From: an uncultured Gammaproteobacteria bacterium
Lineage (GTDB): Bacteria > Patescibacteriota > Microgenomatia > UBA1406 > HO2-37-13b
Reading direction: 5' to 3'
NCBI GenBank assembly: GCA_964477065.1
Contig: CAYZCU010000001.1
Location: forward strand, 26,042 to 77,487
DNA length: 51,446 nt
The position numbers and the translations under genes are program-made. Of this stretch, positions 22,430 to 39,012 are shown one piece after another (position 1 is the stretch's first letter; the number at the start of each line of letters is the position of its first letter). Under the pieces are notes generated by a model that worked only from the letters and a program-made list of their open reading frames with translations, searched no databases and was not told the origin of the DNA.

Positions 22430-22438
22430 AGTATATCA
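22430..22438 (-). promoter_or_regulatory. extended -10 TGaTATACT, 6 nt from ATG 22423 (leaderless)
   Basis: Minus strand reads GAAGTTGATATACTgtttgcATG. The box abuts repeat copy a. Confidence 0.5.
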
Positions 22439-22476
22439 ACTTCGGGTGTTGCACACCCGATGTAGAACATCGGGAG
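22438..22476. repeat. nested-palindrome element, copy a (partial)
   Basis: AACTTCGGGTGTTGCACACCCGATGTAGAACATCGGGAG: two overlapping hairpins (CGGGTGT/ACACCCG and CCCGATGT/ACATCGGG) in the DUF218/msrB divergent region. Confidence 0.85.
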
Positions 22477-22489
22477 AAAATTAGGCTCA

Positions 22490-22498
22490 TGTTATAAT
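22490..22498 (+). promoter_or_regulatory. extended -10 TGtTATAAT, 7 nt from ATG 22506 (leaderless msrB)
   Basis: caTGTTATAATaaatcatATG. Confidence 0.55.
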
Positions 22499-22505
22499 AA
22501 ATCAT

Positions 22506-22892
22506 ATGTACAACAAGCTCACTTTTGAAGAAAATCGCGTCATACATTTTAAAGGCACTGAAGCTCCATTTTCGGGTGAATATGACAACCTGTTTGAGCC
22601 AGGCACGTTCATTTGTCGTCGATGCAATAATCCTCTTTATTCAGCTCAAGCAAAATTTGATGCCGGCTGTGGTTGGCCAGCCTTTGACGATTGCTTCCCT
22701 GGGGCTATAGAACAGTCCGAAGACCCAGATGGACATAGAACTGAAATTACGTGTGCTCACTGCCATGGACACTTGGGACATGTCTTCAAAGGTGAAAAAT
22801 TCACTGATACAGACACCCGTCACTGTGTCAATTCCCTTTCGGTAAAATTTATTCCAGATGGTTCAGAAATTCCACCACTTTTGCAACCATAA
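22506..22892 (+). CDS. msrB: peptide-methionine (R)-S-oxide reductase
   Basis: CRRCNNPL and CAHCHGHLGHVF zinc CxxC pairs, GCGWPAF, catalytic RHCVNS. Confidence 0.9.
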   Translation: MYNKLTFEENRVIHFKGTEAPFSGEYDNLFEPGTFICRRCNNPLYSAQAKFDAGCGWPAFDDCFPGAIEQSEDPDGHRTEITCAHCHGHLGHVFKGEKFTDTDTRHCVNSLSVKFIPDGSEIPPLLQP

Positions 22893-22912
22893 CATTTATC
22901 ATAAAATGAGCG

Positions 22913-22918
22913 TATAAT
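22913..22918 (+). promoter_or_regulatory. -10 box TATAAT, 9 nt from ATG 22928
   Basis: cgTATAATcgtggcattATG. Confidence 0.4.
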
Positions 22919-22927
22919 CGTGGCATT

Positions 22928-23854
22928 ATGCCATTGATTGAGGCTAGATTGCTCCCGATGTTGCACACCCGAAGTGCCCGCCGGGCCTTTCTCGCCTCAA
23001 CAGCATCTCTGCTTCTTTGCTTGCAAACGGCTCACGCCCAAAATGAGCCCCCACAACCTCCGTTGCCTCCATATGCTGGGCCTGTTTTTCAGCCTTCTCC
23101 AGAAGCCCAAATTGTCATCGACAGCATTGCGCAGAGATATGAGACGCGCACTGTGTTTCCTTCAACATGGGATATTGGCAAAGAGCGCTATCCACTTGAA
23201 CCTGCCTCTGCAAAAGTTCTGGAAGTCATTGCGTCTGCTTTTGAACATATTGAGCCACTTGTCGGCAGTGCGGATAGATCAAACGCCGAAGAACATACCA
23301 GCTATCCGCAGGAGCTTCGCATCTACACACTGCGCGGGTTGGCTGGATCGCCCGGTGGCGGATACGCTGATGATATGATTCAGCTGACGATTCCTGGATC
23401 AATCACCTTGCACGATCGAGCACCACGAGATATCGATGGGATTCAGCGTCAAGGGACCGTTGAAGATGAAATCGCACATGCGACGATGCACGAGGTGATG
23501 CATCGTTTTACGGTTTTGCATCCTGCACTTTATGAAGATTATGTGCGTCGCTTCTGGAAGCACAACAAGGATAATACGTGGTCGATCAAGGATCGGCGCA
23601 ACCTCAGTGGGTATCGTGGTGAGCCAAATCCATGGGAGATTTACGCTGATGAGCTAGCAAGTGTTTCGATTCCGATTCGTGATGCATTTGATCAGCGACT
23701 TGATGGAACACTATATGGGTATCGAGTGCTCAGTCAAGGTACAAAAATTTTCCTCCTTGCACATCCGGAACTACGACCGTGGGCACAGTCAAGAAATCGA
23801 TCGGATATTTTCACCTCGTTACCTCGCCTTTTTCTCCCGATGTGCACGAGGTGA
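22928..23854 (+). CDS. secreted hypothetical protein with HExxH motif (putative metallopeptidase)
   Basis: Signal-like N-terminus ...RSARRAFLASTASLLLCLQTAHAQ and HATMHEVMHRF. An alternative start at 22958 (MLHTRS) lies inside repeat copy b. Confidence 0.45.
   Translation: MPLIEARLLPMLHTRSARRAFLASTASLLLCLQTAHAQNEPPQPPLPPYAGPVFQPSPEAQIVIDSIAQRYETRTVFPSTWDIGKERYPLEPASAKVLEVIASAFEHIEPLVGSADRSNAEEHTSYPQELRIYTLRGLAGSPGGGYADDMIQLTIPGSITLHDRAPRDIDGIQRQGTVEDEIAHATMHEVMHRFTVLHPALYEDYVRRFWKHNKDNTWSIKDRRNLSGYRGEPNPWEIYADELASVSIPIRDAFDQRLDGTLYGYRVLSQGTKIFLLAHPELRPWAQSRNRSDIFTSLPRLFLPMCTR
22954..22975. repeat. nested-palindrome element, copy b (internally deleted, inside coding sequence)
   Basis: CCCGATGT-TGCACACCCGAAGT equals the full element minus the 14-nt segment ATAACTTCGGGTGT. 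It encodes ..PMLHTRS.. Confidence 0.7.
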
Positions 23855-23860
23855 ATTGAG

Positions 23861-24031
23861 CTAAAAATTCTGTGACACTTGGAATGCAATGTAAATGCCT
23901 ACAATTCCACCTAGGGTATTGCCGATGAGTGAAGCGATTGAAAGCGCTCCTGCGCCCCAAAGCATGGGTATGTATCCACCGATAAGTGATCCAATCGTTA
24001 GGCCTAGCAGGACAATCTTTTTCGCATCCAT
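23861..24031 (-). CDS. small Gly-rich membrane protein (56 aa; GlsB/YeaQ/YmgE-like?)
   Basis: MDAKKIVLLGLTIGSLIGGYIPMLWGAGALSIASLIGNTLGGIVGIYIAFQV. Start reset to 24031 because the tracked extension reads through repeat copy c. Confidence 0.5.
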   Translation of the reverse strand: MDAKKIVLLGLTIGSLIGGYIPMLWGAGALSIASLIGNTLGGIVGIYIAFQVSQNF

Positions 24032-24037
24032 AGGCTC

Positions 24038-24046
24038 AGTATAGCA
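24038..24046 (-). promoter_or_regulatory. extended -10 TGcTATACT, 6 nt from ATG 24031 (leaderless)
   Basis: Minus strand reads CATCGGGAGACCTGCTATACTgagcctATG. Confidence 0.5.
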
Positions 24047-24051
24047 GGTCT

Positions 24052-24088
24052 CCCGATGTACAACATCGGGTGTGCAACACCCGATGTT
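24052..24088. repeat. nested-palindrome element, copy c
   Basis: CCCGATGTACAACATCGGGTGTGCAACACCCGATGTT in a divergent intergenic region. Confidence 0.85.
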
Positions 24089-24113
24089 GTTGCATTTTCT
24101 CAACAACCTATCC

Positions 24114-24119
24114 TATACT
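24114..24119 (+). promoter_or_regulatory. -10 box TATACT, 6 nt from ATG 24126 (leaderless); TTGCAT -35-like box 18 nt upstream
   Basis: TTGCATtttctcaacaacctatccTATACTgctcatATG. Confidence 0.5.
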
Positions 24120-24125
24120 GCTCAT

Positions 24126-25265
24126 ATGGCAATTTTAAAAAACACTAAACTACAGTATGCAGGCTTCTGGACTCGACTTTTAGCTTATGGAGCTGATTTT
24201 GCAATCCTTTCCTTACTCAATATGACAGTGAGTAATCTTCTCGGATACAACTCTCTGGCTGTACTGAAAGCGACAACACCTGAAGAGCTTGCTACATTAA
24301 GCAAAGCACCTTCCAGCGTCCTTATTTCCGGAATTGCTATAGCACTTTTCTATTATGTTTTCTTTTTGGTTAACTCAGATGGAGCGACAATCGGGAAAAA
24401 ACTTATGGGGATTCGTATTATCTCTGGTAAGGATAAATCGCTCACATACGCAACGGCACTGATTCGCTATTTTTCACAATTTATTTCAGGGATGGCTTTC
24501 ATGCTAGGTTATCTCTGGATCGCAATTGATGGAAAAAAGCAGGGATGGCATGACAAAATTGCAAACACATTTGTTGTTAAGACGGGAGCGAAACCTCGCA
24601 CAATTTTGGCGTCGATACTTACGGTAGTTATACTCCTTTTTTGGCTCATTATCCTTAATCAACTATACTCTCAGTTAAAATTGATAAAAGTGAAATCAAC
24701 CATAAGCTCTGCGTTAGATACAGGTCTCAATTCAGACATGAAGACACTTTCCCCAGATGCGAAGGCACACCTTGAGAAAGCAAATGCAGACATAAATTCA
24801 TACATGTCACAGGCTTCAGCTGATAAAAACAGTCCGCTTTTGAAAGATGCTGAGACCGAATATCTTTCAGCCTTGCAGACAGATGGTTCTAATGGCCTCC
24901 TTTGGTATCGACTAAGTTATCTTTATAGCACGATGGGTAAAAATAATGAAGCACTGAATGCAGCACTTAAGGCTGTTGAGGTCAACCCGGCCGTTGCTGA
25001 ATATCATACGAATCTCGGATATACGTATTATTATCTTGGTGACGATAAGGAGGCAGTTAAAAGCTTCTCCGAAAGTCTTCGTATAGATGACACTGATGCG
25101 AGAACTCATCTTGGCATAGCTCGGGCATACAAAGGGCTCGGTGTCAAAGAGGAAGCTATTACTCATTACGAAAAAGCCATCGCTGGTTTTGAAAAATACA
25201 ATGATAATGGCGAGTTTGATGACTATCTCATCAATGCACGGGTCGAATTGAGTAAACTCAAATGA
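24126..25265 (+). CDS. RDD-domain membrane protein fused to C-terminal TPR repeats
   Basis: YAGFWTRLLAYGADFAIL...GWHDKIANTFVV (RDD family), then TPR-like LWYRLSYLYSTMGKNNEALNAALKAVEVNP... Start reset to 24126. Confidence 0.65.
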   Translation: MAILKNTKLQYAGFWTRLLAYGADFAILSLLNMTVSNLLGYNSLAVLKATTPEELATLSKAPSSVLISGIAIALFYYVFFLVNSDGATIGKKLMGIRIISGKDKSLTYATALIRYFSQFISGMAFMLGYLWIAIDGKKQGWHDKIANTFVVKTGAKPRTILASILTVVILLFWLIILNQLYSQLKLIKVKSTISSALDTGLNSDMKTLSPDAKAHLEKANADINSYMSQASADKNSPLLKDAETEYLSALQTDGSNGLLWYRLSYLYSTMGKNNEALNAALKAVEVNPAVAEYHTNLGYTYYYLGDDKEAVKSFSESLRIDDTDARTHLGIARAYKGLGVKEEAITHYEKAIAGFEKYNDNGEFDDYLINARVELSKLK

Positions 25266-25936
25266 AGTACCTCACCCAAGCCCTCCTCGAGCTCATATTG
25301 ATGCTTGTGCACTTTCCGCTGAGCCTCACGCTTCTCTTCATCAATTGGGATCCCAAACCGGGGGCAACAAACAAACCTACGATTATCCTTGTGGAGCGCT
25401 GGATAAAGCGAAATCCCCTTCACATTTTCATGAAGAGATACTTTGAAAAGCATGGTTACACGGTTCATAGCATCAATTTTCCGATGCTTTCAGGTTCATT
25501 CCCTGAGTCAGCACAACAGCTCCATGACTACATCACATCGCATGCGCTCAATGACGTCATCCTCATCGGTCTGAGCAATGGAGGCTTAACGTGTTATGAA
25601 TATCTTGAAAATTATGATGGCTGGCAGAAGGCTGGCTTGCTTATTACTGTTGGAAGCCCATTTGGTGGGGCAATTCGGGCGCATCTGCTCTATGGAACAC
25701 AGGTAAAGCAGGATATTGATCCGCATGGTACATATATCAAAAAAATTCGAGCTATTTCTTCAAGACATCTTGACCAGATCTACTGCATTGGGGCAAAGGT
25801 TGATCAGATGGTAGGAAATGAGCAAAGTTATCTTCCAGGAGCGCACCGGATCAACATTGATGTCATCGGGCACAACCTTTTGCATACGATTTGGAGGCCA
25901 ACCTTTGATACAATCAATATGATAATAACTACTTAA
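25262..25936 (+). CDS. alpha/beta-hydrolase (lipase/esterase-like)
   Basis: VILIGLSNGG (GxSxG nucleophile elbow), C-terminal D and H candidates. ATGA overlap with the upstream gene. Confidence 0.55.
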   Translation: MKYLTQALLELILMLVHFPLSLTLLFINWDPKPGATNKPTIILVERWIKRNPLHIFMKRYFEKHGYTVHSINFPMLSGSFPESAQQLHDYITSHALNDVILIGLSNGGLTCYEYLENYDGWQKAGLLITVGSPFGGAIRAHLLYGTQVKQDIDPHGTYIKKIRAISSRHLDQIYCIGAKVDQMVGNEQSYLPGAHRINIDVIGHNLLHTIWRPTFDTINMIITT

Positions 25937-25937
25937 T

Positions 25938-26243
25938 ATGATTACACTTGTCCTACCAATTTTTGCATTCTATATGATGGCATTCGGACTACTTATGTCA
26001 TATGGGCTTTATAATTCAGATGTATGGTTTATTGGAGGTATATATTATGCGGGCATCTTTATAATTGTATCAGTGATATCTATAGGAATATATTCACTCC
26101 TAAATTTAATGGTGACCAAAGGGTTTCATAAGTCTGTGTCAAGAAGATCTCACAAGATTTACATATCATGCATGCTTCTTGGAATTAATTCAGCAACAAT
26201 TCTGTTTCTTGTATTTCTAGTTTGGCAATTGTTCGCTGCGTAA
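25938..26243 (+). CDS. hypothetical 3-TM membrane protein
   Basis: Hydrophobic segments only; tightly follows the hydrolase gene. Confidence 0.4.
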   Translation: MITLVLPIFAFYMMAFGLLMSYGLYNSDVWFIGGIYYAGIFIIVSVISIGIYSLLNLMVTKGFHKSVSRRSHKIYISCMLLGINSATILFLVFLVWQLFAA

Positions 26244-26258
26244 GTCGCTCAATTTTAA

Positions 26259-26909
26259 TCACCGCATCCCAACATGCTCCTTCAGCCCTGCGATAAACTC
26301 ATGCTTTCCACCATGTGAGGGATGTCTGATTTTGGGCACATCATAGCCGAGACTGTCAAGGGATGCTTTTGCCTGATTACCAACAGCGATGATCTTTGAA
26401 ATATCAAACAGACGAATAATTTCTTGCAAGAATGGTTTACCCAGCTCCAATTCTACTGAAGTTGGCGCACGATTAGACAGATCAGAATCGCCAAATGGAT
26501 GAAATGGTAATGCCCCCCAGATCAGGGGGACACGCGATACATCCGACATTGCTCCCCACACGATTGTTGCAGAGGGCTCCTTCCACATTTTATCCGGAAA
26601 TTCCGAACTCTTTGCGTATCCGCGAGCTGATCCAAACATATCGATCTCTGGAATGCCCTGCAACATAATATACTCACTCATAAATGGCACCCCCGTTTGG
26701 CGAGTGCCTTGATAGCCCGGAGCTTCTCCAACAAGGAGCGTATCTGGTTTTTGTGAAGCCATCTCTGTGAGATACAAACGGAGGTTGTTTCGACGAATGG
26801 CATTGTCAGACGCATGTTGGCCTTCTGAAGCATAGTGGTTGAAAGCTCGATCCGGTCGTGTTCGTGCAAGAGAGTCAATGAACGCATCGATGTCAGAGGT
26901 CTGGATCAT
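26259..26909 (-). CDS. uracil-DNA glycosylase superfamily protein (family 4-like motifs)
   Basis: [19 protein letters not shown] (GEAPG motif A) and IRHPSHGG (HPS motif B). ATGA overlap with the SPFH gene stop. Confidence 0.6.
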
Positions 26910-27664
26910 TTCTTTTTGGAATCACCTTGGATCATTGAAATTGCTTCATTGACCGTGGTCATAAACTGTGCTGGAAAGATAATGGTGGAATTTTTCTCCA
27001 CACTAATGTCTGCCATCGTTTGAAGTGTGCGTAGTTGCAGTGCAACAGGATGCTTTGAAATGATATCCGCAGCTTCACCAAGTTTGACTGCTGCTTGAAA
27101 CTCTCCTTCGGCACCAACAATTTTTGCACGACGTTCGCGCTCTGCCTCAGCTTCTTTCGCCATCGCACGTTGCATATTTTCAGGCAAGAAAATATCTTTG
27201 ATCTCCACAGCAGTCACCTGCACTCCCCACGGCTCTGTATGAGAATCAATCACATCTTTGATTTTTTTATTGATCTGCGGGGTTTGAGAAAGAAGCTCAT
27301 CAAGTTTGAATTGCCCAACCACATTTCGCACGGTTGTCTGACTAATCTGATTGACCGCATCATAGACATTTTCAATGGCGATAACGGATTTTTGCGGATC
27401 AACAATGTGATAATACGCAACCGCTGCAATGTCGATCGAAACATTATCCTTTGTGATAATTTTCTGTGACGGGATATCCATCGTCACCGTGCGAAGCTGA
27501 ACCTTTGTCATCTGCTCCAAGAAAGGGATAAGGATGATAAGCCCCGGGCCACGAACACCTGTGCACTTACCAAGAAAGAAAATCACGCCTCGGTCATATT
27601 CTTTGACGACTCGAAGTGAAACAGCTGCGAGGATAAATGCTATGAAAATATAAATCGCGTACAT
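26906..27664 (-). CDS. SPFH/band-7 (stomatin/slipin-like) membrane protein
   Basis: N-terminal TM segment, [16 protein letters not shown], a PHB-domain core and a C-terminal coiled coil [16 protein letters not shown]. Start taken at ATG 27664; a TTG at 27685 is an alternative. Confidence 0.8.
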
Positions 27665-27707: not shown

Positions 27708-27923
27708 CTACAGTCTATCTGTCAATGAATTTACAGAATCTGGATCAATTGGACACTTATTGTCAATAGACCCCTTACATTTTTCCACATCATAACGACC
27801 TAAAAATTGGTCCAGCCCACGAGCTTTGAGTCGAAGAGAAGTACGCATTCCAAGTTTGCGAACTCCAAGCATTTCACCTAACTTTCTTCGAACAAATGGG
27901 CACTCACCAATACAGTTTGTCAT
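27708..27923 (-). CDS. hypothetical small Cys-rich protein (71 aa), possible helix-hairpin-helix
   Basis: MTNCIGECPFVRRKLGEMLGVRKLGMRTSLRLKARGLDQFLG... Start chosen at the ATG at 27923, 8 nt after a TATACT box. Confidence 0.35.
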   Translation of the reverse strand: MTNCIGECPFVRRKLGEMLGVRKLGMRTSLRLKARGLDQFLGRYDVEKCKGSIDNKCPIDPDSVNSLTDRL

Positions 27924-27931: not shown

Positions 27932-27937
27932 AGTATA
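27932..27937 (-). promoter_or_regulatory. -10 box TATACT, 8 nt from ATG 27923 (leaderless)
   Basis: Minus strand reads TTGTATACTtgccctatATG. Confidence 0.4.
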
Positions 27938-27967
27938 CAACTTTTCAGATAAATATCAACTCGCTCT

Positions 27968-28013
27968 GAGCTCAATCCCGATGTACAACATCGGGTGTGC
28001 AACACCCGATGTT
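27968..28013. repeat. nested-palindrome element, copy d (with GAGCTCAAT flank)
   Basis: GAGCTCAATCCCGATGTACAACATCGGGTGTGCAACACCCGATGTT. Its last base overlaps the TAA stop of the SGNH gene (28013..28015). Confidence 0.85.
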
Positions 28014-28657
28014 TACACCGCACGAATTTTCTCCGTCAGCGCTTCTCCTAATTTTCTGTTCGCTTCTTCATCCAAATGAATGCCATCAACATCTGAAATC
28101 GTCACGTAGGGAGCACTGTTAAAATAAGCAAGATTTTTTTCAGCAGTATACTTTTCTACAAGAGGAGCAAGTTCGAGAAGTTTCGCACGCGCACCTTTGA
28201 AAAATTCACCAAAAGCCTTAATTGATGCTTCTTCATTGATTGGAGGAGCAGATACAAGCATAATTTTTGGAACAGTAAAGCCGAGATGATCAGCCCACCA
28301 ATTGACCTTCTCAAGATATCCATCATAACCAGCGACAATCTGCGCCGGTGATTTGCCAGCGCCATTATTTGCATCATTTGTACCAAGGAAAAGGACTATC
28401 AGATCCAAGGGTAGATGACTGCCCAGAATCGCCCCAAATTGCTCAGCGCCATTTCTATATGGAAAATACGGATTTTCGCCTTCAAGCATTCTGCCCCGCA
28501 ACCCTTCCTCAATAATATTGTATTCAACACCAAGAATAGTTTGCATGACTCCTGTGAAGCGGACATCGGCAGGATGTCGCAGTCCACCGGGTATTTTCCC
28601 AAAGGTGTAGGAGTCACCAAAGATCAGGATGTTTTTCGCAGTTGGCCGTGTATTCAT
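28013..28657 (-). CDS. SGNH/GDSL hydrolase (esterase/lipase)
   Basis: ILIFGDSYTFG (block I), LGTNDA (block III), DGIHLD (block V, DxxH). Confidence 0.8.
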   Translation of the reverse strand: MNTRPTAKNILIFGDSYTFGKIPGGLRHPADVRFTGVMQTILGVEYNIIEEGLRGRMLEGENPYFPYRNGAEQFGAILGSHLPLDLIVLFLGTNDANNGAGKSPAQIVAGYDGYLEKVNWWADHLGFTVPKIMLVSAPPINEEASIKAFGEFFKGARAKLLELAPLVEKYTAEKNLAYFNSAPYVTISDVDGIHLDEEANRKLGEALTEKIRAV

Positions 28658-28682
28658 ATATGCGTGTGGTTCTCAGACGAGA

Positions 28683-28985
28683 TCATTTTTTTGCCCAACG
28701 CGTAATGTAAACGCCATAAAGCAACAAGCCAAGGATTACGATAAACATGAGACTTTCTACAATCACCTCTGACCATAGCACCATTCCTAAACCAACAAAG
28801 ATCATTTTTGTTGGTAGTACTTTTGGTTTGCGAAGGCTTATGCTAACACCAACGAGGGCAAGAAGCGATCCGATTATCATCATCAGACCAACTGTCGGAC
28901 TCCCCCCTAGACTATTCATCCACCCTGCAAAGAGAAAAAATAACGATATCAAAAATACAGCAAGATCTACAAGTTGTTTTTTCAT
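28683..28985 (-). CDS. hypothetical 3-TM membrane protein
   Basis: Hydrophobic ORF with no recognisable motif. Confidence 0.4.
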   Translation of the reverse strand: MKKQLVDLAVFLISLFFLFAGWMNSLGGSPTVGLMMIIGSLLALVGVSISLRKPKVLPTKMIFVGLGMVLWSEVIVESLMFIVILGLLLYGVYITRWAKK

Positions 28986-29122
28986 AGTAATTGCTAAATC
29001 AAGTAATAGCTTAGTCTAGGCTATAGTTATATCTTTTGCAATATTGAATAAAATTGTATAGTTATTTCGGACTTTCCTAAAGGGCCATTCCGTAAGTGAA
29101 AAACTATACGACACTGCGATTC

Positions 29123-29168
29123 GAGCTCAATCCCGATGTACAACATCGGGTGTGCAACACCCGAAGTT
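29123..29168. repeat. nested-palindrome element, copy e (with GAGCTCAAT flank)
   Basis: GAGCTCAATCCCGATGTACAACATCGGGTGTGCAACACCCGAAGTT, ending 6 nt before the tspO -10 box. Confidence 0.85.
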
Positions 29169-29174
29169 GTTTTG

Positions 29175-29180
29175 TATACT
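29175..29180 (+). promoter_or_regulatory. -10 box TATACT, 6 nt from ATG 29187 (leaderless tspO)
   Basis: GAAGTTGTTTTGTATACTgaaaccATG. Confidence 0.5.
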
Positions 29181-29186: not shown

Positions 29187-29585
29187 ATGGACAACGCCTA
29201 CCAGTGGTACTCAACCCTCATCCGCCCGGCATGGGCACCGCCGAGTTGGCTTTTTGGCCCTGTGTGGACAGTGCTCTATACTGGCATAGCCATATCATTC
29301 GGACGCGTTTTTTATCTTGCATGGAAGAAAAAACTGCCGTCTCGCATCGCTTTACCCTTTGCACTCAATCTGTTGGCAAATTTTTCATTTACACCACTTC
29401 AATTTGGACTCAAGAACAACCTCCTCGCCGCCATCGACATCTTGCTTGTCCTCGTCACGTTGATCTGGGCAATGAAAGCTATTTACAAGCGCGTGCGCTG
29501 GATTGCGCTGATGCAGATTCCGTATCTTCTCTGGGTGAGCTTTGCAACAGTTTTGCAACTTACAATCACCTATCTCAACCTGTAG
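29187..29585 (+). CDS. tspO: TspO/MBR tryptophan-rich sensory protein
   Basis: WYSTLIRPAWAPPSWLFGPVWTVLYTGIA..., 5 TM segments. Start reset to MDNAYQ because the tracked extension reads through repeat copy e. Confidence 0.85.
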   Translation: MDNAYQWYSTLIRPAWAPPSWLFGPVWTVLYTGIAISFGRVFYLAWKKKLPSRIALPFALNLLANFSFTPLQFGLKNNLLAAIDILLVLVTLIWAMKAIYKRVRWIALMQIPYLLWVSFATVLQLTITYLNL

Positions 29586-29588
29586 CAT

Positions 29589-30098: not shown

Positions 30099-30137
30099 AG
30101 AGCCACTGCTACAATCTGAAAAAACTTTTATAGTAAG

Positions 30138-30596
30138 CTAGGATATTCCTTTTTTATGTCCCTTGAGCTTGGTGAATCCGTATGCAACACCAGCACCGAC
30201 AACACCCGCAACAATATCACGAGCGTCAGGCGTACGAGTTCCAGTATTCACAACTGGATGGATGTACTGGTCAATTTCAAGCGCTGTATTGAGAGCTATT
30301 GCTGCCGCCGCAGATACTCTTGGACTTGTCCCCAAAACCGCTCTCATAAAATGGTAACTTAAATATGATCCTGTAGCTGGTGCACCATATGACTCTAAAA
30401 ACCGTGTAAGCATATCTGCACGGGTTCCGATGTAAACAATAGCTGAAGTGAGAAGTCCCATTAACTGGAGACTGTTCAATTTTTCATAATTGCCCAGTAC
30501 CAACGAAATTTCCCTTTCCCCCAACTTGTAGCTTACAAGCACTCCAGCGCTTTCTTTGTCTGTAGAAACAACGTGTCCTTGTTGATCATTTTCCAT
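30138..30596 (-). CDS. hypothetical protein
   Basis: 152-aa ORF with a Gly/Ala-rich C-terminal hydrophobic segment. No motif recognised. Confidence 0.35.
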   Translation of the reverse strand: MENDQQGHVVSTDKESAGVLVSYKLGEREISLVLGNYEKLNSLQLMGLLTSAIVYIGTRADMLTRFLESYGAPATGSYLSYHFMRAVLGTSPRVSAAAAIALNTALEIDQYIHPVVNTGTRTPDARDIVAGVVGAGVAYGFTKLKGHKKGIS

Positions 30597-30631
30597 AATG
30601 TAGTAGTTGATGAATGGATATGTAGCGCGAT

Positions 30632-34281: not shown

Positions 34282-34884
34282 TTACACTATGTCTTCGGTT
34301 TTGACTTCTCCCGTACGTTTATAGTAACCAAAGAAAATCCCGCTTGGGGTAACTTTAGATTTAAAAAGCTTAAAAGCGGCAGGAATTGTACCTTTTTCAA
34401 ATAACCTTTTTCCTGTCCCAAGTGTAAGAGGAAATATTTTTAGCCAAAGTTCATCTACTAAATCATTTTCCATGAGTGATTGAATAAGATGAGCGCTACC
34501 ATACACTTGTAAATCCGGACCCGTTGATTTCTTTAGCTTTTTTAATTCAGTAATATCTTTTAAAACTTCTGTGTTTTCCCAGGCTGGGTTTTTTAATGTC
34601 GTGGATACGACATATTTTGGAACTTTGTTTATTTGCGGCCAGCCTTCAGCTTCTGTAGTGTGATGTGGCCAAAATCCTGAAAAGATATCATATGTTTTTC
34701 GCCCAAGGAGTAATCCAGCGGTTTCTTTCATTTGTATTCCCATTTCTTTCCCGCCAGCTTCATCAAAATAGGGGGCCATCCATCCACCATATTTAAATCC
34801 TTCGGCTGTATCTTCTTTAGACCCACCCGGAGCTTGGATTACGCCATCCAGTGTAATAAATTCGACAACAATAATTTTTCTCAT
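34282..34884 (-). CDS. dihydrofolate-reductase-like (RibD C-terminal domain/YyaP-like) protein
   Basis: MRKIIVVEFITLDGVIQAPGG...LLGRKTYDIF...VYGSAHLIQSL. Confidence 0.75.
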   Translation of the reverse strand: MRKIIVVEFITLDGVIQAPGGSKEDTAEGFKYGGWMAPYFDEAGGKEMGIQMKETAGLLLGRKTYDIFSGFWPHHTTEAEGWPQINKVPKYVVSTTLKNPAWENTEVLKDITELKKLKKSTGPDLQVYGSAHLIQSLMENDLVDELWLKIFPLTLGTGKRLFEKGTIPAAFKLFKSKVTPSGIFFGYYKRTGEVKTEDIV

Positions 34885-34890
34885 TAAACC

Positions 34891-34899
34891 ATTCTATCA
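34891..34899 (-). promoter_or_regulatory. extended -10 TGaTAGAAT, 6 nt from ATG 34884 (leaderless)
   Basis: Minus strand reads TTGATAGAATggtttaATG. Confidence 0.5.
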
Positions 34900-34956
34900 A
34901 ATATCCTCAAGGAGTAATTGCGAAGTTTCCGAGGTTAAATTACATCTAGTTTTGGG

Positions 34957-35027
34957 CTGGGGAACAAGGATTCGAACCCTGAATAATTGGACCAAAACCA
35001 ATTGTGATGCCATTTCACCATTCCCCA
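34957..35027 (-). tRNA. tRNA-Gln (anticodon UUG)
   Basis: Minus strand: TGGGGAA TG GTGA AATGGCA TCAC A ATTGG TTTTGGT CCAAT TATT CAGGG TTCGAAT CCTTG TTCCCCA G. 71 nt with U1:A72 and G73. 3' CCA is not encoded (followed by CCC). Confidence 0.85.
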
Positions 35028-35086
35028 AATCTGAGATATTATACCAAGCGCAGATGAGTCTGCATAGCCGTAAATAGCGACAAACC

Positions 35087-35095
35087 TGTTATAAT
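35087..35095 (+). promoter_or_regulatory. extended -10 TGtTATAAT, 8 nt from ATG 35104 (leaderless era)
   Basis: cCTGTTATAATacatctatATG. Confidence 0.55.
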
Positions 35096-35103
35096 ACATC
35101 TAT

Positions 35104-35970
35104 ATGAAAGCTGGATACGTCGCGCTGATTGGTCGTCCGAATGTGGGGAAATCCACCCTCGTCAACAACCTCATCGGCACAAAAGTTGCCATCACATCAC
35201 CGAAGCCACAGACAACTCGATTTCCTATCGAGGGGCTTTTTGAGGATGAGCGAGGGCAAATCATTTTTGTGGACACACCAGGGATTTTCAAAAAGGCAAA
35301 AGATGAAGTCTCCAAGCGGATCAACATGAAGGCGCTTGAGCCATTCAAAAAAACAGTCAATCTGGTGCTCTATGTCATCGACCACACGCGAACGCGAGAT
35401 TTTGAAGAAGCAAAAGTCCTCGGAATTGTGCGCAAACTTCATGTCCCCACCATTCTCGTGTACAACAAAGTCGACGTCACGGAGCCTACATTCCGTCCCC
35501 TGTATGCATTTTTGGAAGATGAATTTGACACAGTGGTAGAAGTATCCGCCCTCGAACGAACTCATTTGAAAACTCTTTTAGAAGTGATTTTTGACAAGTT
35601 ACCTGAGGTTGACGCCCCTCTTATTGAAAAAGGTGAATATGTATATCCAGCTCTCAATCTTGACAGCAAGACATTTATTGCTGAAATAATCCGTGAAAAA
35701 GTATTCTTACGCACTCGCAAAGAAGTGCCCTACACGAGTACCGTTGTTGTGGACGAGATCAAAGAGCGTGATGCACACACGACATACATCAAGGCTGAGG
35801 TCCTCACGACGGATGACGTCTACAAAAAAATGCTTATCGGCGCGGGAGGTCGTCGAATCAAGGAGATTGGCAGTATGGCCCGCAAGGAATTGGAGCTCTC
35901 AACAGGGCGCAAAATCTATCTCGAACTCACCGTGCGCACGGATCGGCATTGGCCAACTACTTTGACGTAG
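35104..35970 (+). CDS. era: GTPase Era
   Basis: G1 GRPNVGKS, G3 DTPG, G4 NKVD, C-terminal KH domain (LIGAGGRRIKEIG). Confidence 0.9.
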   Translation: MKAGYVALIGRPNVGKSTLVNNLIGTKVAITSPKPQTTRFPIEGLFEDERGQIIFVDTPGIFKKAKDEVSKRINMKALEPFKKTVNLVLYVIDHTRTRDFEEAKVLGIVRKLHVPTILVYNKVDVTEPTFRPLYAFLEDEFDTVVEVSALERTHLKTLLEVIFDKLPEVDAPLIEKGEYVYPALNLDSKTFIAEIIREKVFLRTRKEVPYTSTVVVDEIKERDAHTTYIKAEVLTTDDVYKKMLIGAGGRRIKEIGSMARKELELSTGRKIYLELTVRTDRHWPTTLT

Positions 35971-36169
35971 GTCCAAGGTGACGGTCAAGATAAGCAAATG
36001 TATCTTCAAGAAAGTATGGTGGGGGTTCAATATCCGGCGTGGTAGTCACGAGCCATTGCACGATAGCCTCTTCTTTTGCAGTCTGCAATTCAGATCGCTC
36101 GTGCAAATCACGAATTGCTGTGAGATCAACCTTGGGGGCACGTTGTCCTTCACCAGCCTCATCACTCAT
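35957..36169 (-). CDS. hypothetical acidic small protein (70 aa)
   Basis: ORF directly downstream of gltX. A TATAGT box (36176..36181) lies 6 nt upstream of its ATG. Its 3' end overlaps the convergent era gene by 14 nt. Confidence 0.35.
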   Translation of the reverse strand: MSDEAGEGQRAPKVDLTAIRDLHERSELQTAKEEAIVQWLVTTTPDIEPPPYFLEDTFAYLDRHLGPTSK

Positions 36170-36188
36170 GCCTCAACTATACTCTTTT

Positions 36189-37631
36189 CTACGACAATTG
36201 CAAGCGCTTCAAACATTCTGCCTTGCCAAGAATTTCCATACTTTCGTTTGTTGGCGGAGTGACTTTTTTACCTGTTAAGGCGACCCGCACAAGCATGAAA
36301 AATTTGCCAAACGCCATACCGACTTCCTGAGCAGTCCCTTGAAGATGCTCCCCAATGATATCTGCATGCCAATCCTTTTCATCAATCCGGTCAAGGTCCG
36401 CGACGATTTTAGCAAAAATATCTGCTTGGTCTGACAGCTCAACTTCATATGTTGTTGGTGCTTCAATGAAAAATCGGCAATAGGCATCATAGTCCTGCAA
36501 CGTCTTGAGGCGCGTCTGGACAAGCGGAACAGTATATCCAATCAATTCACGTGAATAGGCACCGTCTTTGTATGTCTGCGTATACTCATAAATATGATCT
36601 GCCAAGGCATCCGCACTCATCATCCGAATATACTCACCATTCATCCATTCCAGTTTCGTCAGATCAAATGCAGGTCCTGTTGGAGAGACATCCTTAAACT
36701 CGAAAAGATCAATAAATTCCTGGAGTGAAAAAATTTCTTTTCCCTCAGGATGTGACCAGCCCTGAAGACATAAAAAATTGCGAAGCGCATCAGGCACGAT
36801 CCCATGTTCCTGATACCACGAGATGTTTGTGTGCCCGTGACGTTTGCTCATCTTGCTCCTATCCATATTGCGCAGAATCGGGGTGTGGTTGTAGTTGATT
36901 TCAGGCCATCCGAAGGCTCTATACAATAACGCATGCTTCGGCCACGATGAAATCCACTCCTCTCCACGAATTGGATCAGTGATATTCATTAAATGATCAT
37001 CCACAACAACAGCAAGATGGTATGTTGCAAAGCCGTCAGATTTGAGTAACACTTGGTCATCAATGAGCGCCAACTCAAAATCAATGGGGCCACGAAGCGA
37101 GTCCTGAAGGGTAATGGTTTTTTTGCCATCAACCTCATCAGGGATTTTGAGACGAATGACATATGGCTCAGTGTTCGCCAGCTTTTCCTGAACACTTTCA
37201 GCGCTCAATGAACGACATTTCCTATCATACATCGGTGGCTTTTTCTCATGTTGCTGGGTTGCACGGACTTCATCAAGTCGCTCCTTTGTGCAAAAGCAGT
37301 AATAGGCATGCCCCTGTGCGACAAGATCCTCGGCATGCTTCTTGTATAAAGACAAGCGCTCAGATTGTCGATACGGGCCATACTCTCCCCCCATTCGCGC
37401 ACTTTCATCCTCCGGAATGTTGAGCCATTCAAGCGCTTTGTAAATGGCTTCCTCAGCCCCCTCAACTTTTCGCGTCTGATCCGTATCTTCGATACGAACC
37501 ACAAACACGCCTCCATGCTTGTGCGCCAAGGCGTAGTCAAAAAGAGATTGATACATCGTGCCAATATGAGGAAAGCCTGTTGGGGATGGAGCGATGCGGG
37601 TGCGGGTGGTTTTTTGAGTACGGGTGTTCAT
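36189..37631 (-). CDS. gltX: glutamyl-tRNA synthetase
   Basis: RIAPSPTGFPHIGT (HIGH) and KMSKR (KMSKS); 480 aa. Confidence 0.9.
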   Translation of the reverse strand: MNTRTQKTTRTRIAPSPTGFPHIGTMYQSLFDYALAHKHGGVFVVRIEDTDQTRKVEGAEEAIYKALEWLNIPEDESARMGGEYGPYRQSERLSLYKKHAEDLVAQGHAYYCFCTKERLDEVRATQQHEKKPPMYDRKCRSLSAESVQEKLANTEPYVIRLKIPDEVDGKKTITLQDSLRGPIDFELALIDDQVLLKSDGFATYHLAVVVDDHLMNITDPIRGEEWISSWPKHALLYRAFGWPEINYNHTPILRNMDRSKMSKRHGHTNISWYQEHGIVPDALRNFLCLQGWSHPEGKEIFSLQEFIDLFEFKDVSPTGPAFDLTKLEWMNGEYIRMMSADALADHIYEYTQTYKDGAYSRELIGYTVPLVQTRLKTLQDYDAYCRFFIEAPTTYEVELSDQADIFAKIVADLDRIDEKDWHADIIGEHLQGTAQEVGMAFGKFFMLVRVALTGKKVTPPTNESMEILGKAECLKRLQLS

Positions 37632-37681
37632 GTGAGTAGGATGAGCTAAATGTCCGCTTTTGGGCTTCCTGTCATGCTTGA

Positions 37682-37690
37682 ATTATAGCA
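37682..37690 (-). promoter_or_regulatory. extended -10 TGcTATAAT for gltX (about 44-nt leader)
   Basis: Reverse complement is TGCTATAAT. Located between repeat copy f and the gltX ATG. Confidence 0.45.
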
Positions 37691-37707
37691 TACGGTCAGC
37701 TAGTATG

Positions 37708-37772
37708 AGAGTTGATCCCGATGTATAACTTCGGGTGTTGCACACCCGAAGTTATACATCGGGATTGAGCTC
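37708..37772. repeat. nested-palindrome element, copy f (full length; perfect 51-nt palindrome 37715..37765)
   Basis: ATCCCGATGTATAACTTCGGGTGT-TGC-ACACCCGAAGTTATACATCGGGAT has 24-nt perfect arms. Flanked by GAGAGTTG on the left and TGAGCTC on the right. Confidence 0.9.
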
Positions 37773-37776
37773 AAAA

Positions 37777-39012
37777 ATGTCCCTTTCAGAACTATCATAC
37801 TACGTCAGAAAAATTGGACCTGTCGCGTTGGTAGGCTTCATAATGCTGATGATTTTTTACGTCATAATTACAACACTTTTATCACTCGCTCCGAAGACGT
37901 CACAACAGCAGACAAATGTCCCATATGCGCCACCGTTTGGGATCCTTGAACCAATCCATTTCGTGCATTCGATCAACTATCCATCAGACGTATCCTTCAC
38001 GATCGACAATATTGAGGGACGACCCATCACCACAGACACTGAAGCACTCGTTTATGCTGTCCCCTCAAGTCGAACGAAATTTGGCTATCAGCAATCATTG
38101 GCATTTATGGCAAAGGCAGTTGGCATCGATACTGAGACACAAAAGTATCAATTAAGGGGACTTAGCGCGCGCTATCAGGACGAACTGCGCACGTTGGATG
38201 TCGATATAACGACGTTTAATTTTGAATATGAGCTCAATTATAGGAAGACACCGACCATTTTTTCCCGAAGTGCAACACCCGATGTTAACACAGCCAAAGA
38301 GGAGGCAAAAAGCTTCCTTCGCAAGATGAATAAGTTTTCGCAATACCTTGCCCAGGGAACCCAAAATGTGATCTACCTATCGTATGATCCGCAAGTTGAT
38401 GTTTTTAATGTCGTTCAAACCCCAGAAGAAGCCAATGTTGTGGAGGTGGACTTTTTTGCGCCAAATCTCGACAACCACCCGGTGGTGTCGCCGACATATT
38501 TTAACAGTCATATCTTTGTCACCATGGTCTTCACACAAGATGGTCCTGTTGTGATCAAGTCACATGTTGCAAGCTTCGAACCTCAGACATCAATCCAAGC
38601 GGGACAGTCAGCGCCGGCCCAAGGGGCAGACGCCGTGCCAACTTCGGGAACGTATCCGCTCAAAACAGGTGACGAGGCATGGCAGGAGCTTATCACAGGC
38701 AAAGGTATTATTGTCTCACCTTCAAAAGGATCGACGAAAATCATTGTCCGAGAAATGTTTATCGGCTACTACGCACTTGAAGAATACCATCCGTACATGA
38801 TGCCCGTTTATGTATTCCTTGGGGATAATGGCTTTGCAGGGTATGTCTCTGCTGTGAAGAATGAGTTTGTCTCAAAGGTAGTCAAGCAAACAACCGCCCC
38901 GTCAGAGTATCCATTGCCAACTCTTGAAAGCGAACCGGCGACACCGACAGCTATGCCTGAACAGATAGAGACACCTATCCCAACAGAAGCTTCACCTGCA
39001 GAAAATATCTAG
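37777..39012 (+). CDS. hypothetical membrane-anchored extracytoplasmic protein
   Basis: N-terminal TM segment (IGPVALVGFIMLMIFYVIITTLL), large extracytoplasmic region, P/T/E-rich tail. An alternative start at 37735 (MLHTRS...) lies inside repeat copy f. Confidence 0.5.
   Translation: MSLSELSYYVRKIGPVALVGFIMLMIFYVIITTLLSLAPKTSQQQTNVPYAPPFGILEPIHFVHSINYPSDVSFTIDNIEGRPITTDTEALVYAVPSSRTKFGYQQSLAFMAKAVGIDTETQKYQLRGLSARYQDELRTLDVDITTFNFEYELNYRKTPTIFSRSATPDVNTAKEEAKSFLRKMNKFSQYLAQGTQNVIYLSYDPQVDVFNVVQTPEEANVVEVDFFAPNLDNHPVVSPTYFNSHIFVTMVFTQDGPVVIKSHVASFEPQTSIQAGQSAPAQGADAVPTSGTYPLKTGDEAWQELITGKGIIVSPSKGSTKIIVREMFIGYYALEEYHPYMMPVYVFLGDNGFAGYVSAVKNEFVSKVVKQTTAPSEYPLPTLESEPATPTAMPEQIETPIPTEASPAENI
38230..38286. 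repeat. nested-palindrome element, copy g (degenerate, in-frame inside a CDS)
   Basis: GAGCTCAAT, then 25 nt, then CCCGAAGT-GCAACACCCGATGTT. This is the same 14-nt internal deletion type as copy b. It encodes ..YELNYRKTPTIFSRSATPDVN.. Confidence 0.6.

Follow-up and report, generated by a model that had tools for sequence, protein, structure and literature searches.

What are the short palindromic sequences that recur between genes in a stretch of 51,446 nt (the window) from an ultra-small, Microgenomates-like CPR/Patescibacteria bacterium: mobile repeats, operators of a regulator, or another kind of element? The motif was found at every position that the first-pass annotation had given for it, and the repeat family is real and far above chance. 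With up to two mismatches, CCCGATGTNNNACATCGGG occurred 6 times (0.02 expected), and CCCGATGT occurred 16 times (1.19 expected). A repeat search of the window recovered the same family (entries D6, D8, D13, D17 and I1–I14). Seven copies had been counted. Five of them were full and hairpin-capable (22438, 24051, 27967, 29122 and 37715), while those at 22954 and 38230 turned out to be remnants in coding sequence without a hairpin, and an eighth, degenerate copy at 23834–23868 had been missed. The family thus has five full copies and three hairpin-less remnants (22935, 23834 and 38230), the latter overlapping ORF ends or interiors. The spacing was irregular, as already described. An nhmmer profile and a covariance model, run with filters off, detected no further copy in the window's remaining 36 kb; real copies scored at least 46 bits, and the next best match 14.8 bits. 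The features, with −10 boxes as read from the sequence, are:

22430–22435, minus strand: −10 box of the DUF218 gene (TATACT), 6 nt before the ATG and 2 nt from E1
22438–22490 (arms 22438–22475), minus strand: E1, full copy with three arms between DUF218 (minus) and msrB (plus), read on the minus strand as TCCCGATGT-TCT-ACATCGGGTGT-GCA-ACACCCGAAGT, with a flank variant ATGAGCCTAAT at 22476–22490; orthologous copy at L017:4746–4784
22493–22498, plus strand: −10 box of msrB
22935–22975, plus strand: R1, hairpin-less remnant with flank-like TGATTGAGGCTAGAT, outer arm CTCCCGATGT, centre TGC and inner arm ACACCCGAAGT, encoding residues 3–16 (LIEARLLPMLHTRS) at the N-terminus of a secreted HExxH protein (22928–23854)
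23834–23868, minus strand: R2, degenerate remnant CTCCCGATGT-GCAC-GAGGTGA-ATTGAGCTAAAAAT, spanning the stops of two convergent genes (TGA at 23852–54; CTA, that is TAG on the minus strand, at 23861–63)
24038–24043, minus strand: −10 box of the 56-aa membrane protein gene
24051–24090, plus strand: E2, full copy with three arms and an arm2/arm3 stem of 14 bp, between the 56-aa membrane protein gene (minus, start 24031) and the RDD-TPR gene (plus, start 24126); two-arm orthologues at L017:3161–3191 and L018:6912–6942
24114–24119, plus strand: −10 box of the RDD gene
27932–27937, minus strand: −10 box of the 71-aa Cys-rich gene
27967–28015, plus strand: E3, flank TGAGCTCAAT and three-arm copy, adjoining the stop codon of the GDSL gene (minus) and lying upstream of the 71-aa gene (minus), 29 nt from its −10 box
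28016–29121, minus strand: segment with the GDSL hydrolase gene and a 100-aa membrane protein gene, with E3 and E4 as direct copies on its two sides
29122–29170, plus strand: E4, flank CGAGCTCAAT and three-arm copy, its inner arm ending 6 nt before the tspO −10 box and the start of the 100-aa gene lying 135 nt off on the other side; orthologues at L017:750–800 (three arms and flank) and L018:4450–4480 (two arms only)
29175–29180, plus strand: −10 box of tspO (TATACT)
37682–37687, minus strand: −10 box of gltX
37701–37706, plus strand: candidate TAGTAT upstream of E5
37715–37776, minus strand: E5, four-arm copy, a perfect 24-3-24 palindrome, plus flank ATTGAGCTCAAAA that ends one base before the ATG (37777) of a secreted protein gene, with the gltX −10 box 29–30 nt away on the other side; orthologues in L010–L012, L013 (compensatory changes) and L014 (degenerate)
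38230–38286, plus strand: R3, remnant inside the secreted-protein ORF, with GAGCTCAAT, 24 unrelated nt and TCCCGAAGT-GCA-ACACCCGATGTT

The conserved module is an inverted repeat of 11–14 bp, AACWTCGGGTGw-N3-wCACCCGAWGTT. Outer arms (TCCCGAWGT) and a 12-nt perfectly palindromic flank (ATTGAGCTCAAT, to which GAGCTCAAT belongs) are optional extensions, giving two-, three- and four-arm forms. The ancestral module is best read as an 11–14 bp inverted repeat around a 3–5 nt centre, with the core TCGGGTG-N5-CACCCGA. All five full copies had loops and flank in common, and in each the asymmetric centre GCA pointed the same way with respect to outer arm and flank, which shows that the copies are related by descent. 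In R1 and R3, both within coding sequence, the outer arm is joined straight to the centre and a single inner arm, and therefore they form no hairpin. R3 corresponds to a full copy without loop 1 and inner arm and encodes ELNYRKTPTIFSRSATPDV; the protein alignment with L013 and L014 had no indel at its position. L017 has kept R1, with its own centre (AGATAAACA) and W base, and R2, as CTCCCGAAGACTTCGAGGTAAATTGAGCTAAAAAT.

The longer of the two proposed hairpins had been given as 9 bp; it is 11–14 bp, and this arm2–arm3 hairpin prevails in the predicted fold. The predicted DNA hairpins had z-scores of −3 to −12. Among 13 orthologous and paralogous copies, 94% of 182 cells were paired, compared with 34–53% in slid controls. 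Five pairs (16 cells) had changed on both sides, and the paired-change result was reached by 0 of 500 shuffles. Explicit double changes were seen at the gltX site of L013 (CCCGAGGT/ACCTCGGG and TTA/TAA) and at the msrB site of L017 (TCTTCGGGTGA/TCACCCGAAGA). The core TCGGGTG/CACCCGA was intact in 11 of the 13 copies, the exceptions being one copy with a single C-to-T in one half-site and the L014 copy with a degenerate arm. As judged from these alignments, the changes show that the copies were kept palindromic in a paired manner; self-correction of palindromes by template switching could yield them without selection for structure.

When syntenic loci were compared, the element was present at all four orthologous sites examinable in the relatives (L013, L014, L017 and L018), while the window and L017 agree at only ~46% of their four-fold sites. 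Sites held across related species in this way point to a REP-type repeat or a regulatory site, not to a jumping gene or chance, and on these alignments they show vertical inheritance at fixed intergenic positions; with this occupancy the element is not a recent insertion. Within the window lineage, paralogous copies were 89% identical, versus 65–74% in L017. The window copy W1 was 90% identical to W4 and 65% to its own orthologue, and the centre was TGTGCAACA at every window site, whereas the orthologous sites read TGATAATCA (msrB), TGTTTATCA (RDD) and TGGTTATCA (gltX). These comparisons show, at the level of aligned copies, concerted evolution, in which the copies were homogenised among sites in the window lineage.

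The placement of four copies in divergent gaps next to −10 boxes, as first annotated, was confirmed: copies lay in 4 of 7 divergent gaps and in 1 of 55 other gaps (Fisher p = 3e-4), within 0–8 nt of −10 boxes on one side. Elements or remnants were found at six of the seven transcription-unit boundaries from 21.9 to 30 kb. The promoters are compact, the −10 hexamer beginning 11–16 nt before the ATG, and most operon-leading ones consist of an extended −10 box alone, 6–8 nt before the start codon. These extended −10 promoters look leaderless. With promoters of this kind, the element would fill the only free DNA, the 40–90 nt between back-to-back promoters, and would overlie positions −14 to −50 of one promoter or of both. 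Most copies are upstream of the −10 boxes and therefore probably not transcribed.

Our best explanation, to which we give a nearly even chance, is a lineage-restricted, vertically inherited family of REP-like DNA repeats, able to form hairpins or cruciforms and acting at the DNA level next to promoters. Homogenisation may reflect hairpin-directed copying, or else gene conversion among neighbouring copies. The repeats could act as a structure-dependent site for a putative protein and/or as a sink for negative supercoils; either way the adjoining promoters would be modulated, by something that is probably neither an RNA element nor an active transposon. Copies that landed in transcribed or coding sequence would have lost one inner arm, and hence the hairpin. 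Searches of 185,579 species representatives, of metagenome contigs from JGI and of viral contigs, plasmids and phages gave no homologous copy; the few exact core matches in those collections were unrelated hairpins.

Of the REP/MITE-like nature suggested earlier, the REP-like half fits best, considering descent, compensatory changes, homogenisation and the two-, three- and four-arm forms. The MITE half does not: the copies had neither target-site duplications nor MITE-type terminal repeats, and the element measures 38–60 nt, whereas MITEs are usually 100–400 bp long. In REPINs the hairpins often carry compensatory changes (PMC3116915), and both singlets and inverted doublets are known (PMC3337134), while REPs are typically numerous and the described ones predominantly gammaproteobacterial (PMC3686654). 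The family resembles them as short (about 20–40 nt) imperfect palindromes repeated in extragenic DNA, in its singlets and inverted doublets forming a long hairpin (here E5, 24-3-24), in the common compensatory changes of the stem, and in a lineage-specific consensus with mostly vertical inheritance (PMC3337134, PMC3116915, PMC3686654). It differs in its CPR host, in the enrichment between divergent promoters, in positions held across near-saturated synonymous divergence, and in that no RAYT was seen and the copies lack the 5′ GT(A/G)G head, a refined REP hallmark. Gene 3′ ends and convergent gaps are where classical REPs are preferentially located. The low, clustered copy number (5 in 16 kb, 0 in 36 kb of the window) also counts against a REP-like element. 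Across the 51-kb window and ~95 kb of relatives, no gene of the RAYT/IS200 or DDE type and none for a recombinase was detected, and the first-pass annotation was right that no transposase lies nearby. Correia elements are MITEs, and RPE-type repeats occur inside ORFs. The family is likewise small, non-coding and interspersed, with some copies or remnants inside coding sequence (R1–R3), but it has no TIR/TSD signatures, its unit is much shorter, its remnants replace sequence with the length unchanged relative to L014, and there was no presence/absence polymorphism at the sites examined.

An operator array of a conventional dimeric or oligomeric transcription factor is possible, if distinctly less probable. 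Each arm would be a half-site, two to four arms would bind one or two dimers, and both back-to-back promoters would be occluded, the targets being local envelope and stress genes (DUF218, msrB, tspO, hydrolases, secreted proteins, the gltX neighbour). The preference for divergent gaps, the fixed-spacing half-sites and the conservation at 4/4 positions would fit such an operator equally well: the half-sites TCGGGTG-N5-CACCCGA are all but invariant and keep their spacing across lineages, the orthologous sites stayed occupied despite the synonymous divergence, and the element overlaps the −14 to −50 zone and supplies the TG of the extended −10 box in L017 and L018 (CCCGATGTTATAAT). Arm number is known to vary in arrayed operators, for example met boxes and omega heptads. 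CIRCE/HrcA 9-9-9 inverted repeats and arrayed RHH operators are palindromic operators shared by divergent promoters, and they too have fixed-spacing half-sites over the upstream promoter part, kept at orthologous genes, with variable repeat number. In contrast to them, the stems here are far longer and perfect (14–24 bp), the paralogues evolve in concert and have conserved loops, centre and flank, and no cognate regulator was identified. A factor would not constrain the loops, asymmetric centre and 12-nt flank that are included in the 89% identity of the window copies, and complementarity reaches 14 bp (24 bp in E5) and is maintained by double-sided changes. Further points against an operator are three loci homogenised towards one variant in the window lineage, composite-unit remnants in coding sequence, L014 arms that drifted to a new variant, and the lack of an adjacent regulator gene, the only HTH and ROK genes lying 14–20 kb away. 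The earlier proposal of a global regulator's operator thus keeps its operator part, given the half-sites, the abutting −10 boxes and the conserved position; 'global' is not supported because all copies lie within 16 kb and none in 36 kb of the window.

A comparable known case is the regulatory DNA cruciform of the Vibrio parahaemolyticus exsBA intergenic region, which is attenuated by HlyU (PMC10325908). There, as here, intergenic inverted repeats adjoin a promoter, and an extruded form could repress or gate transcription, according to the supercoiling and to a protein that binds it. In Vibrio a single locus has been proven by experiment, whereas ours is a multi-copy family described from sequence.

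Lox/attC-like sites for site-specific recombination that bound exchangeable gene cassettes, with 12-nt arms around the asymmetric 7-nt spacer GTGCAAC and with the recombinase gene located elsewhere, are improbable. The 1.1-kb two-gene segment lies between two direct copies, E3 and E4 (98% identity, 1155 bp from start to start), and is missing from L017 and L018; those genomes have a single element there, between the small Cys-rich gene and TspO, as excision or integration would be expected to leave. The one orientation of the centre relative to the outer arm, the position at transcription-unit boundaries and an RDD gene indel adjoining E2 would also agree. However, homologous deletion between direct repeats suffices for the one flanked indel, and the RDD, 623-aa and 152-aa indels have no flanking copies. 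Lineages whose synonymous sites are saturated otherwise share the same gene order, centres vary among sites within L017, and neither RYYYAAC/GTTRRRY cores nor a tyrosine or serine recombinase in the window or the relatives' sequences were found.

Slightly less probable still is an RNA-level element, whose transcribed hairpins would stabilise 5′/3′ UTRs, terminate transcription or form an attenuator-like switch, with arm 2 pairing either with arm 1 or with arm 3; we consider this very doubtful. E3 directly follows the GDSL stop codon, and E5 is probably part of the secreted-protein gene's 5′ UTR, given the conserved TAGTAT upstream and the lack of a −10 box beside the ATG. Two copies matched a terminator-like pattern, and non-Watson-Crick cells on one strand were G.T in 7 and A.C in 1. 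But at E5 the strand rich in G.T is antisense to the putative UTR, most copies have no following U-tract, and no Rfam family matched, save a sub-threshold long-hairpin miRNA match. E1, E2 and E4 lie between outward-facing −10 boxes 6–8 nt from start codons, so neither neighbour should transcribe them. The two mutually exclusive hairpins first proposed are weak as a switch, since the arm2–arm3 hairpin is thermodynamically dominant, which leaves no balanced alternative, and most copies are upstream of −10 boxes.

A currently active selfish MITE or REPIN, mobilised in trans with a promoter-proximal insertion preference, is the most improbable: the window-lineage copies are highly similar, a duplicated copy accompanies the lineage-specific segment, and a metagenome contig of a near-identical strain (L015) begins ~20 nt downstream of E2, but target-site duplications, a transposase and homologous copies in the collections above are lacking, every examinable site is ancient and orthologous, and the only empty site is tied to the gene indel.

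A hairpin-forming palindromic repeat is present in the window as five full copies (E1–E5) and three remnants without the hairpin (R1–R3).

Copies of the element in the window
22438–22475, minus orientation: E1, full copy, between DUF218 and msrB
24051–24090: E2, full copy, between a 56-aa gene and an RDD-TPR gene
27967–28015: E3, full copy, after the GDSL gene
29122–29170: E4, full copy, between a 100-aa gene and tspO
37715–37776, minus orientation: E5, full copy, between gltX and a secreted-protein gene
22935: R1, remnant, at one end of the HExxH gene (22928–23854)
23834–23868: R2, remnant, at the other end of the HExxH gene
38230: R3, remnant

The first-pass annotation had listed seven copies. 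Five of them are full, those at 22954 and 38230 turned out to be hairpin-less remnants, and the degenerate R2 is an eighth. All five full copies are intergenic and each remnant overlaps the end or interior of an ORF, the hairpin being kept only outside coding sequence. An nhmmer profile and a covariance model with filters off found no further copy in the window, so that all copies are confined to 22.4–38.3 kb; true copies scored 46 bits or more, any other match 14.8 bits at most. In the window, CCCGATGTNNNACATCGGG with up to two mismatches occurred 6 times (0.02 expected) and the 8-mer CCCGATGT 16 times (1.19 expected). The repeat search recovered the family in direct and inverted orientation (D6, D8, D13, D17, I1–I14). 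The same copies were found in independent assemblies, which counts against chance or an assembly artefact. A CRISPR array was ruled out by the irregular start-to-start spacings (3925, 1155 and 8585 nt for the four D6 copies), the genes between the repeats and the mixed orientations.

The composite unit reads [ATTGAGCTCAAT] TCCCGAWGT - NNN - ACWTCGGGTGT - GCA - ACACCCGAWGT (- NNN - ACATCGGGA), and its flank alone forms a perfect 12-nt palindrome. Pairing between outer and inner arm spans 8 bp, and that between the two inner arms 11–14 bp round a 3-nt loop, not the 9 bp first proposed. E1–E4 have three arms and some orthologues two, and E5 has four, forming a perfect 24-3-24 palindrome or doublet (I14). 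In the predicted ssDNA fold the arm2–arm3 hairpin (in E5 the long hairpin) dominates, with minimum free energies of −10.5 to −28.9 kcal/mol and z-scores of −3 to −12. The two hairpins, earlier described as mutually exclusive, thus do not form a balanced switch. Relative to a full copy, R3 (TCCCGAAGT-GCA-ACACCCGATGT) lacks loop 1 and one of the inner arms, and R1 is built in the same way but with the centre inverted.

The best named matches of GltX (~58% identity) were from Woesebacteria, Roizmanbacteria and Microgenomates, and by its GltX homologues the host organism is placed in CPR/Patescibacteria. Pfam annotation of essentially all ORFs ≥100 aa confirmed the gene names given earlier, as well as the absence of a transposase: no transposase, RAYT or recombinase was detected among the window ORFs, and no transposase, PF01797-type or other, in the gene tables of the relatives. 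Pfam with relaxed E-values found no DNA-binding domain in the ORFs neighbouring the copies, small ones included. The only regulator-like genes in the window, HTH_3 and ROK, are 14–20 kb away from the element.

About 14 operon-leading genes had a TAnAnT (TATAAT/TATACT-like) hexamer starting 11–16 nt before the ATG, often preceded by TGn (e.g., at 19594–19599, 22430–22435, 22493–22498, 24114–24119, 29175–29180, and upstream of 32637 and 41788), and none of them had a Shine-Dalgarno sequence. This arrangement suggests that compact promoters of an extended −10, −35-independent and leaderless type are the norm in this CPR genome. Where the element is missing, 44 nt suffice for a divergent pair (12606/12651), and the divergent gaps bearing it are 82, 92–94, 201 and 145 nt long. 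One element end lies 0–8 nt from a −10 box (2 nt for DUF218, 6 nt for tspO, 7 nt for the 56-aa gene), and in L017 and L018, two contigs of relatives, the TG of TGTTATAAT is supplied by the element arm. Full copies occupied four of the seven divergent gaps vs one of the 55 tandem or convergent gaps (Fisher p = 3e-4); with gap length allowed for, our own calculation from base counts gave p ~0.005. With remnants included, the element stood at 6/7 transcription-unit boundaries between 21.9 and 30 kb.

The TspO homologue (29187–29585) is short (132 aa), its Pfam match begins at profile position 17, and it appears to miss transmembrane helix 1. Automatic gene calls take an in-frame ATG inside the element (29136), giving a 149-aa TspO with an extension that is not hydrophobic. 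The gltX promoter region GCTATAATTCAAGCATGA (37632–37690, minus) is conserved across the clade (L013:5110–5170, L014:7300–7325, L019:7500–7530). In L019, a more distant GltX relative, gltX starts leaderless at an ATG lying 6 nt beyond the −10 box, and the corresponding ATG of L013 shares the gltX reading frame. The window's ATG opens only a 9-codon mini-ORF (MTGSPKADI-stop) in a leader identical in L010–L012, and the gltX ATG follows 47 nt downstream, out of frame and without a Shine-Dalgarno sequence. Reinitiation, translational coupling or a shifted start may apply here.

The relatives were reached via proteins; L017 and L018 are syntenic with window 13.7–30 kb.

Nucleotide identity of relatives to the window, and state of the orthologous sites
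L010–L012: 95.5%
L015: 97–99.7%
L013: about 76%
L014: about 69–77%
L017 and L018: 72–80%
gltX site: element in L010–L012 and L013; degenerate in L014
tspO site: three arms plus flank in L017; two arms in L018
msrB/DUF218 site: element in L017
56-aa gene site: two arms each in L017 and L018

Four-fold degenerate sites were merely 46% identical between the window and L017, so neutral sites are near saturation. The element was nevertheless found at 4/4 orthologous sites examined; none was empty. The core TCGGGTG-N5-CACCCGA was intact in 11/13 copies, the exceptions being the L017 tspO copy, with one half-site altered by a C-to-T substitution, and one degenerate arm in L014. In the 31-nt core alignment, 94% of the cells were standard pairs, compared with 34–53% in slid controls, and five pairs had changed on both sides (16 cells); 0/500 shuffles reached the observed score. 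Examples are CCCGAGGT...ACCTCGGG and TTA...TAA in L013, vs CCCGATGT...ACATCGGG and ATA...TAT in the window, and TCTTCGGGTGA-TAA-TCACCCGAAGA at the L017 msrB site, vs ACATCGGGTGT-GCA-ACACCCGAAGT. Non-Watson-Crick cells on the flank-left strand were G.T seven times and A.C once, which weakly hints that hairpin use is strand-specific. An appearance of selection for pairing could come from template-switch "self-correction" of palindromes.

The family is clade-restricted, as GltX relatives at 63–65% identity (L019–L021) had no element at the gltX site. There L019 (7440–7475) and L020 (940–975), from a 65% GltX relative, have (G)GATGACGGGCCT x2 in direct tandem; a short repeat of another kind thus occupies this gap in that lineage. 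E5 had no BLAST match among plasmids and phages. The exact 19–21-nt core recovered only unrelated hairpins from genomes, metagenomes and viral contigs, exact matching being blind to variants like TGATAATCA. Among these, contigs L001–L006 of the unrelated Gammaproteobacteria MAG S13.Bin138 (62% GC) had at least six copies of a repeat of their own, ...AACGTTCCGGTCGGGTGTGCAACACCCGACCGGCTCA, whose hairpin contains the identical 19-nt core, GCA loop included. With so many REP-like families, chance probably explains the identity, though convergent recognition may instead be behind it.

Core identity averaged 89% among window paralogues, vs 65–74% among L017 paralogues and 65–97% between orthologous pairs. 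The centre TGTGCAACA occurred in all window copies, in one orientation relative to the outer arm. At the orthologous msrB, 56-aa gene and gltX sites (L017, L018, L013) the centres were TGATAATCA, TGTTTATCA and TGGTTATCA, and the tspO site alone had TGTGCAACA in both lineages. From this distribution we infer conversion to the tspO type at three window sites, and E2 also gained an outer arm. The coding remnants follow the lineage as well, the two ends of the HExxH gene both carrying CTCCCGATG (Met) in the window and both CTCCCGAAG (Lys) in L017. Judged from these sequences, the pattern indicates that gene conversion or re-copying has homogenised copies of common descent, which misfits binding sites maintained independently.

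The element resembles REPs and REPINs, short imperfect palindromes that are repeated and almost exclusively extragenic. Descent-related composite units, paired changes, homogenisation, a variable arm number and ORF remnants are documented for them (PMC3337134, PMC3116915, PMC3686654), and each has its counterpart here, the paired changes in perfect stems of 14–24 bp and the homogenisation lineage-wide. REPINs are inverted doublets of REPs that form a long hairpin; E5 is a perfect 24-3-24 doublet, the other window copies have three arms and some orthologues two. In REPs a conserved 5′ GT(A/G)G tetranucleotide heads the palindrome (PMC3686654); the copies had no consistent GTAG or GTGG, GTAG occurring in E1 only, within a loop. 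REPs accompany a single-copy RAYT (Y1/HUH transposase) flanked by repeats, and none was seen among the window ORFs or in the relatives' gene tables. REPs also reach tens to hundreds of copies per genome; the window has five copies of the element in 16 kb and none in the other 36 kb. Its placement bias is unusual for REPs. We therefore withhold REP/REPIN membership, the missing head, the unseen RAYT, a copy number counted within the window alone and the placement being the reasons. The element behaves in a REP/REPIN-like way, and it belongs with none of the MITEs, attC sites, CRISPR arrays, terminators and Rfam families.

Our favoured reading, tentative and close to evenly balanced between belief and doubt, is that a REP-like repeat, recognised by a protein as a hairpin or cruciform, works at the DNA level and influences the adjacent compact promoters. 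The nearest mechanistic precedent is a promoter-proximal regulatory cruciform at the exsBA/HlyU locus of Vibrio parahaemolyticus (PMC10325908). Alternatively, the copies could be operators of a classical transcription factor, as the intact half-site core, fixed spacing, adjacency to −10 boxes and position kept at every orthologous site examined would suggest. However, the paralogues agree beyond contacted positions, in loops, flank and asymmetric centre, and those of the window are more identical to each other than to their own orthologues; we regard an operator as rather unlikely, if still a serious contender.

A wider version of the DNA-level reading, in which the palindromes form a CPR-specific class of structural promoter element, combines several steps, and we consider it quite unlikely that all hold jointly. 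Cruciforms would extrude under negative supercoiling between back-to-back, −35-less and apparently leaderless promoters. Alone or via a hairpin-binding protein, they would couple or gate both divergent genes, and hairpin-directed copying between sites would keep the element sequence uniform. Small gene cassettes would now and then be gained or lost through these sites, an example being the GDSL + 100-aa segment (28016–29121) bracketed by E3 and E4, two copies in direct orientation with 98% identity. The segment is missing from L017 and L018, where a single element stands in its place; deletion between repeats or integration at the site could explain the difference. That the elements are site-specific recombination sites in general we find very improbable; other indels have no flanking copies (the RDD-TPR gene beside E2, a 623-aa ORF, 30104–30616). 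Integron attC sites were rejected: the copies had no RYYYAAC...GTTRRRY cores and the window ORFs no integrase; genes lie in both orientations, in an order conserved in L017, with one segment flanked by direct copies.

An RNA-level element is a shade less credible still. E3, in a 3′ UTR, should be transcribed by its position, and E5, downstream of the conserved TAGTAT, is probably transcribed as a 5′ UTR. E1, E2 and E4 stand between outward-facing −10 boxes and are presumably untranscribed, so the contexts are heterogeneous, as expected for a DNA repeat. With Rfam 15 only two tRNAs in the window passed the gathering score, leaving no riboswitch or known RNA among the copies; E5 gave a sub-threshold long-hairpin miRNA match (46 vs 100 bits). 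An active MITE or REPIN is the least believable reading, and a MITE was rejected, the flanks of E1–E5 having no target-site duplication, the copies no terminal inverted repeats, and the ancient orthologous sites all being occupied.

Intrinsic terminators were rejected, most copies lacking a U-tract and the context being wrong: E3 alone follows a gene and has no T-run, and E2 and E4 match the terminator scan pattern with no gene reading into them. The hexamers TTGCAC and TTGAGC were at no consistent distance from any −10 box, excluding a promoter inside the element. DGRs (no RT, no A-specific mismatches) and parS/matS-like sites or uptake sequences (motif, density and context misfit) were dropped.

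CPR/Patescibacteria genomes are ~1 Mb in size, and the intergenic gaps in the window are very short. To our knowledge, transcription signals and regulation in this group are essentially uncharted; full-text literature searches found nothing on its promoters, leaderless mRNAs or interspersed palindromes. Because it sits between minimal promoters and survived near-saturating synonymous divergence, the element is a concrete, testable cis-regulatory or genome-organising candidate, clean and conserved in a CPR lineage, in which REP-like evolution (concerted and compensatory change) co-occurs with operator-like placement. Its interest is moderate; it may prove merely a small REP family or an ordinary operator, either of modest, specialist interest.

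The 20–35 kb region is a gene gain/loss hotspot (19986–21857, 24126–25265, 25908–26258, 28016–29121 and 30104–30616, vs L015, L017 and L018). L017 lacked the 623-aa ORF, the RDD-TPR gene and the GDSL + 100-aa pair. L015, a 97–99% identical strain, was without a 152-aa ORF and had a 350-bp stretch (101-aa gene) replaced. Upstream of era the window has a tRNA-Gln (35090), and L010, L011 and L013 have a 232–233-aa HTH/LAGLIDADG-like ORF instead, where their similarity to the window ends.

An RRM-domain gene (18167–18487; L017:6936–7256) was 97% identical at the nucleotide level and 95% at four-fold sites, vs 35–54% at four-fold sites for its neighbours. Nine short contigs of several samples encode the exact protein, none of them long enough to extend to an element. 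The pattern suggests that the gene was either recently transferred or recombined or is under strong constraint at the nucleotide level. The SPFH/Band_7 protein, 85–93% identical across many lineages and hence a poor relatedness marker, still led to L017 and L018. A small, basic, Cys-rich protein (69–71 aa) of very divergent sequence, without a Pfam match, was always encoded between the SPFH gene and the tspO-side element (window 27708–27923; L017:~845–1060; L018:4603–4812) and could be zinc-binding or redox-sensing. At 14822–18050, a sortase gene is followed by three ORFs without a Pfam match, in DNA full of 12/18-nt periodic CCAACRCCRACA repeats (D1–D5); these probably encode low-complexity, sortase-anchored surface proteins.
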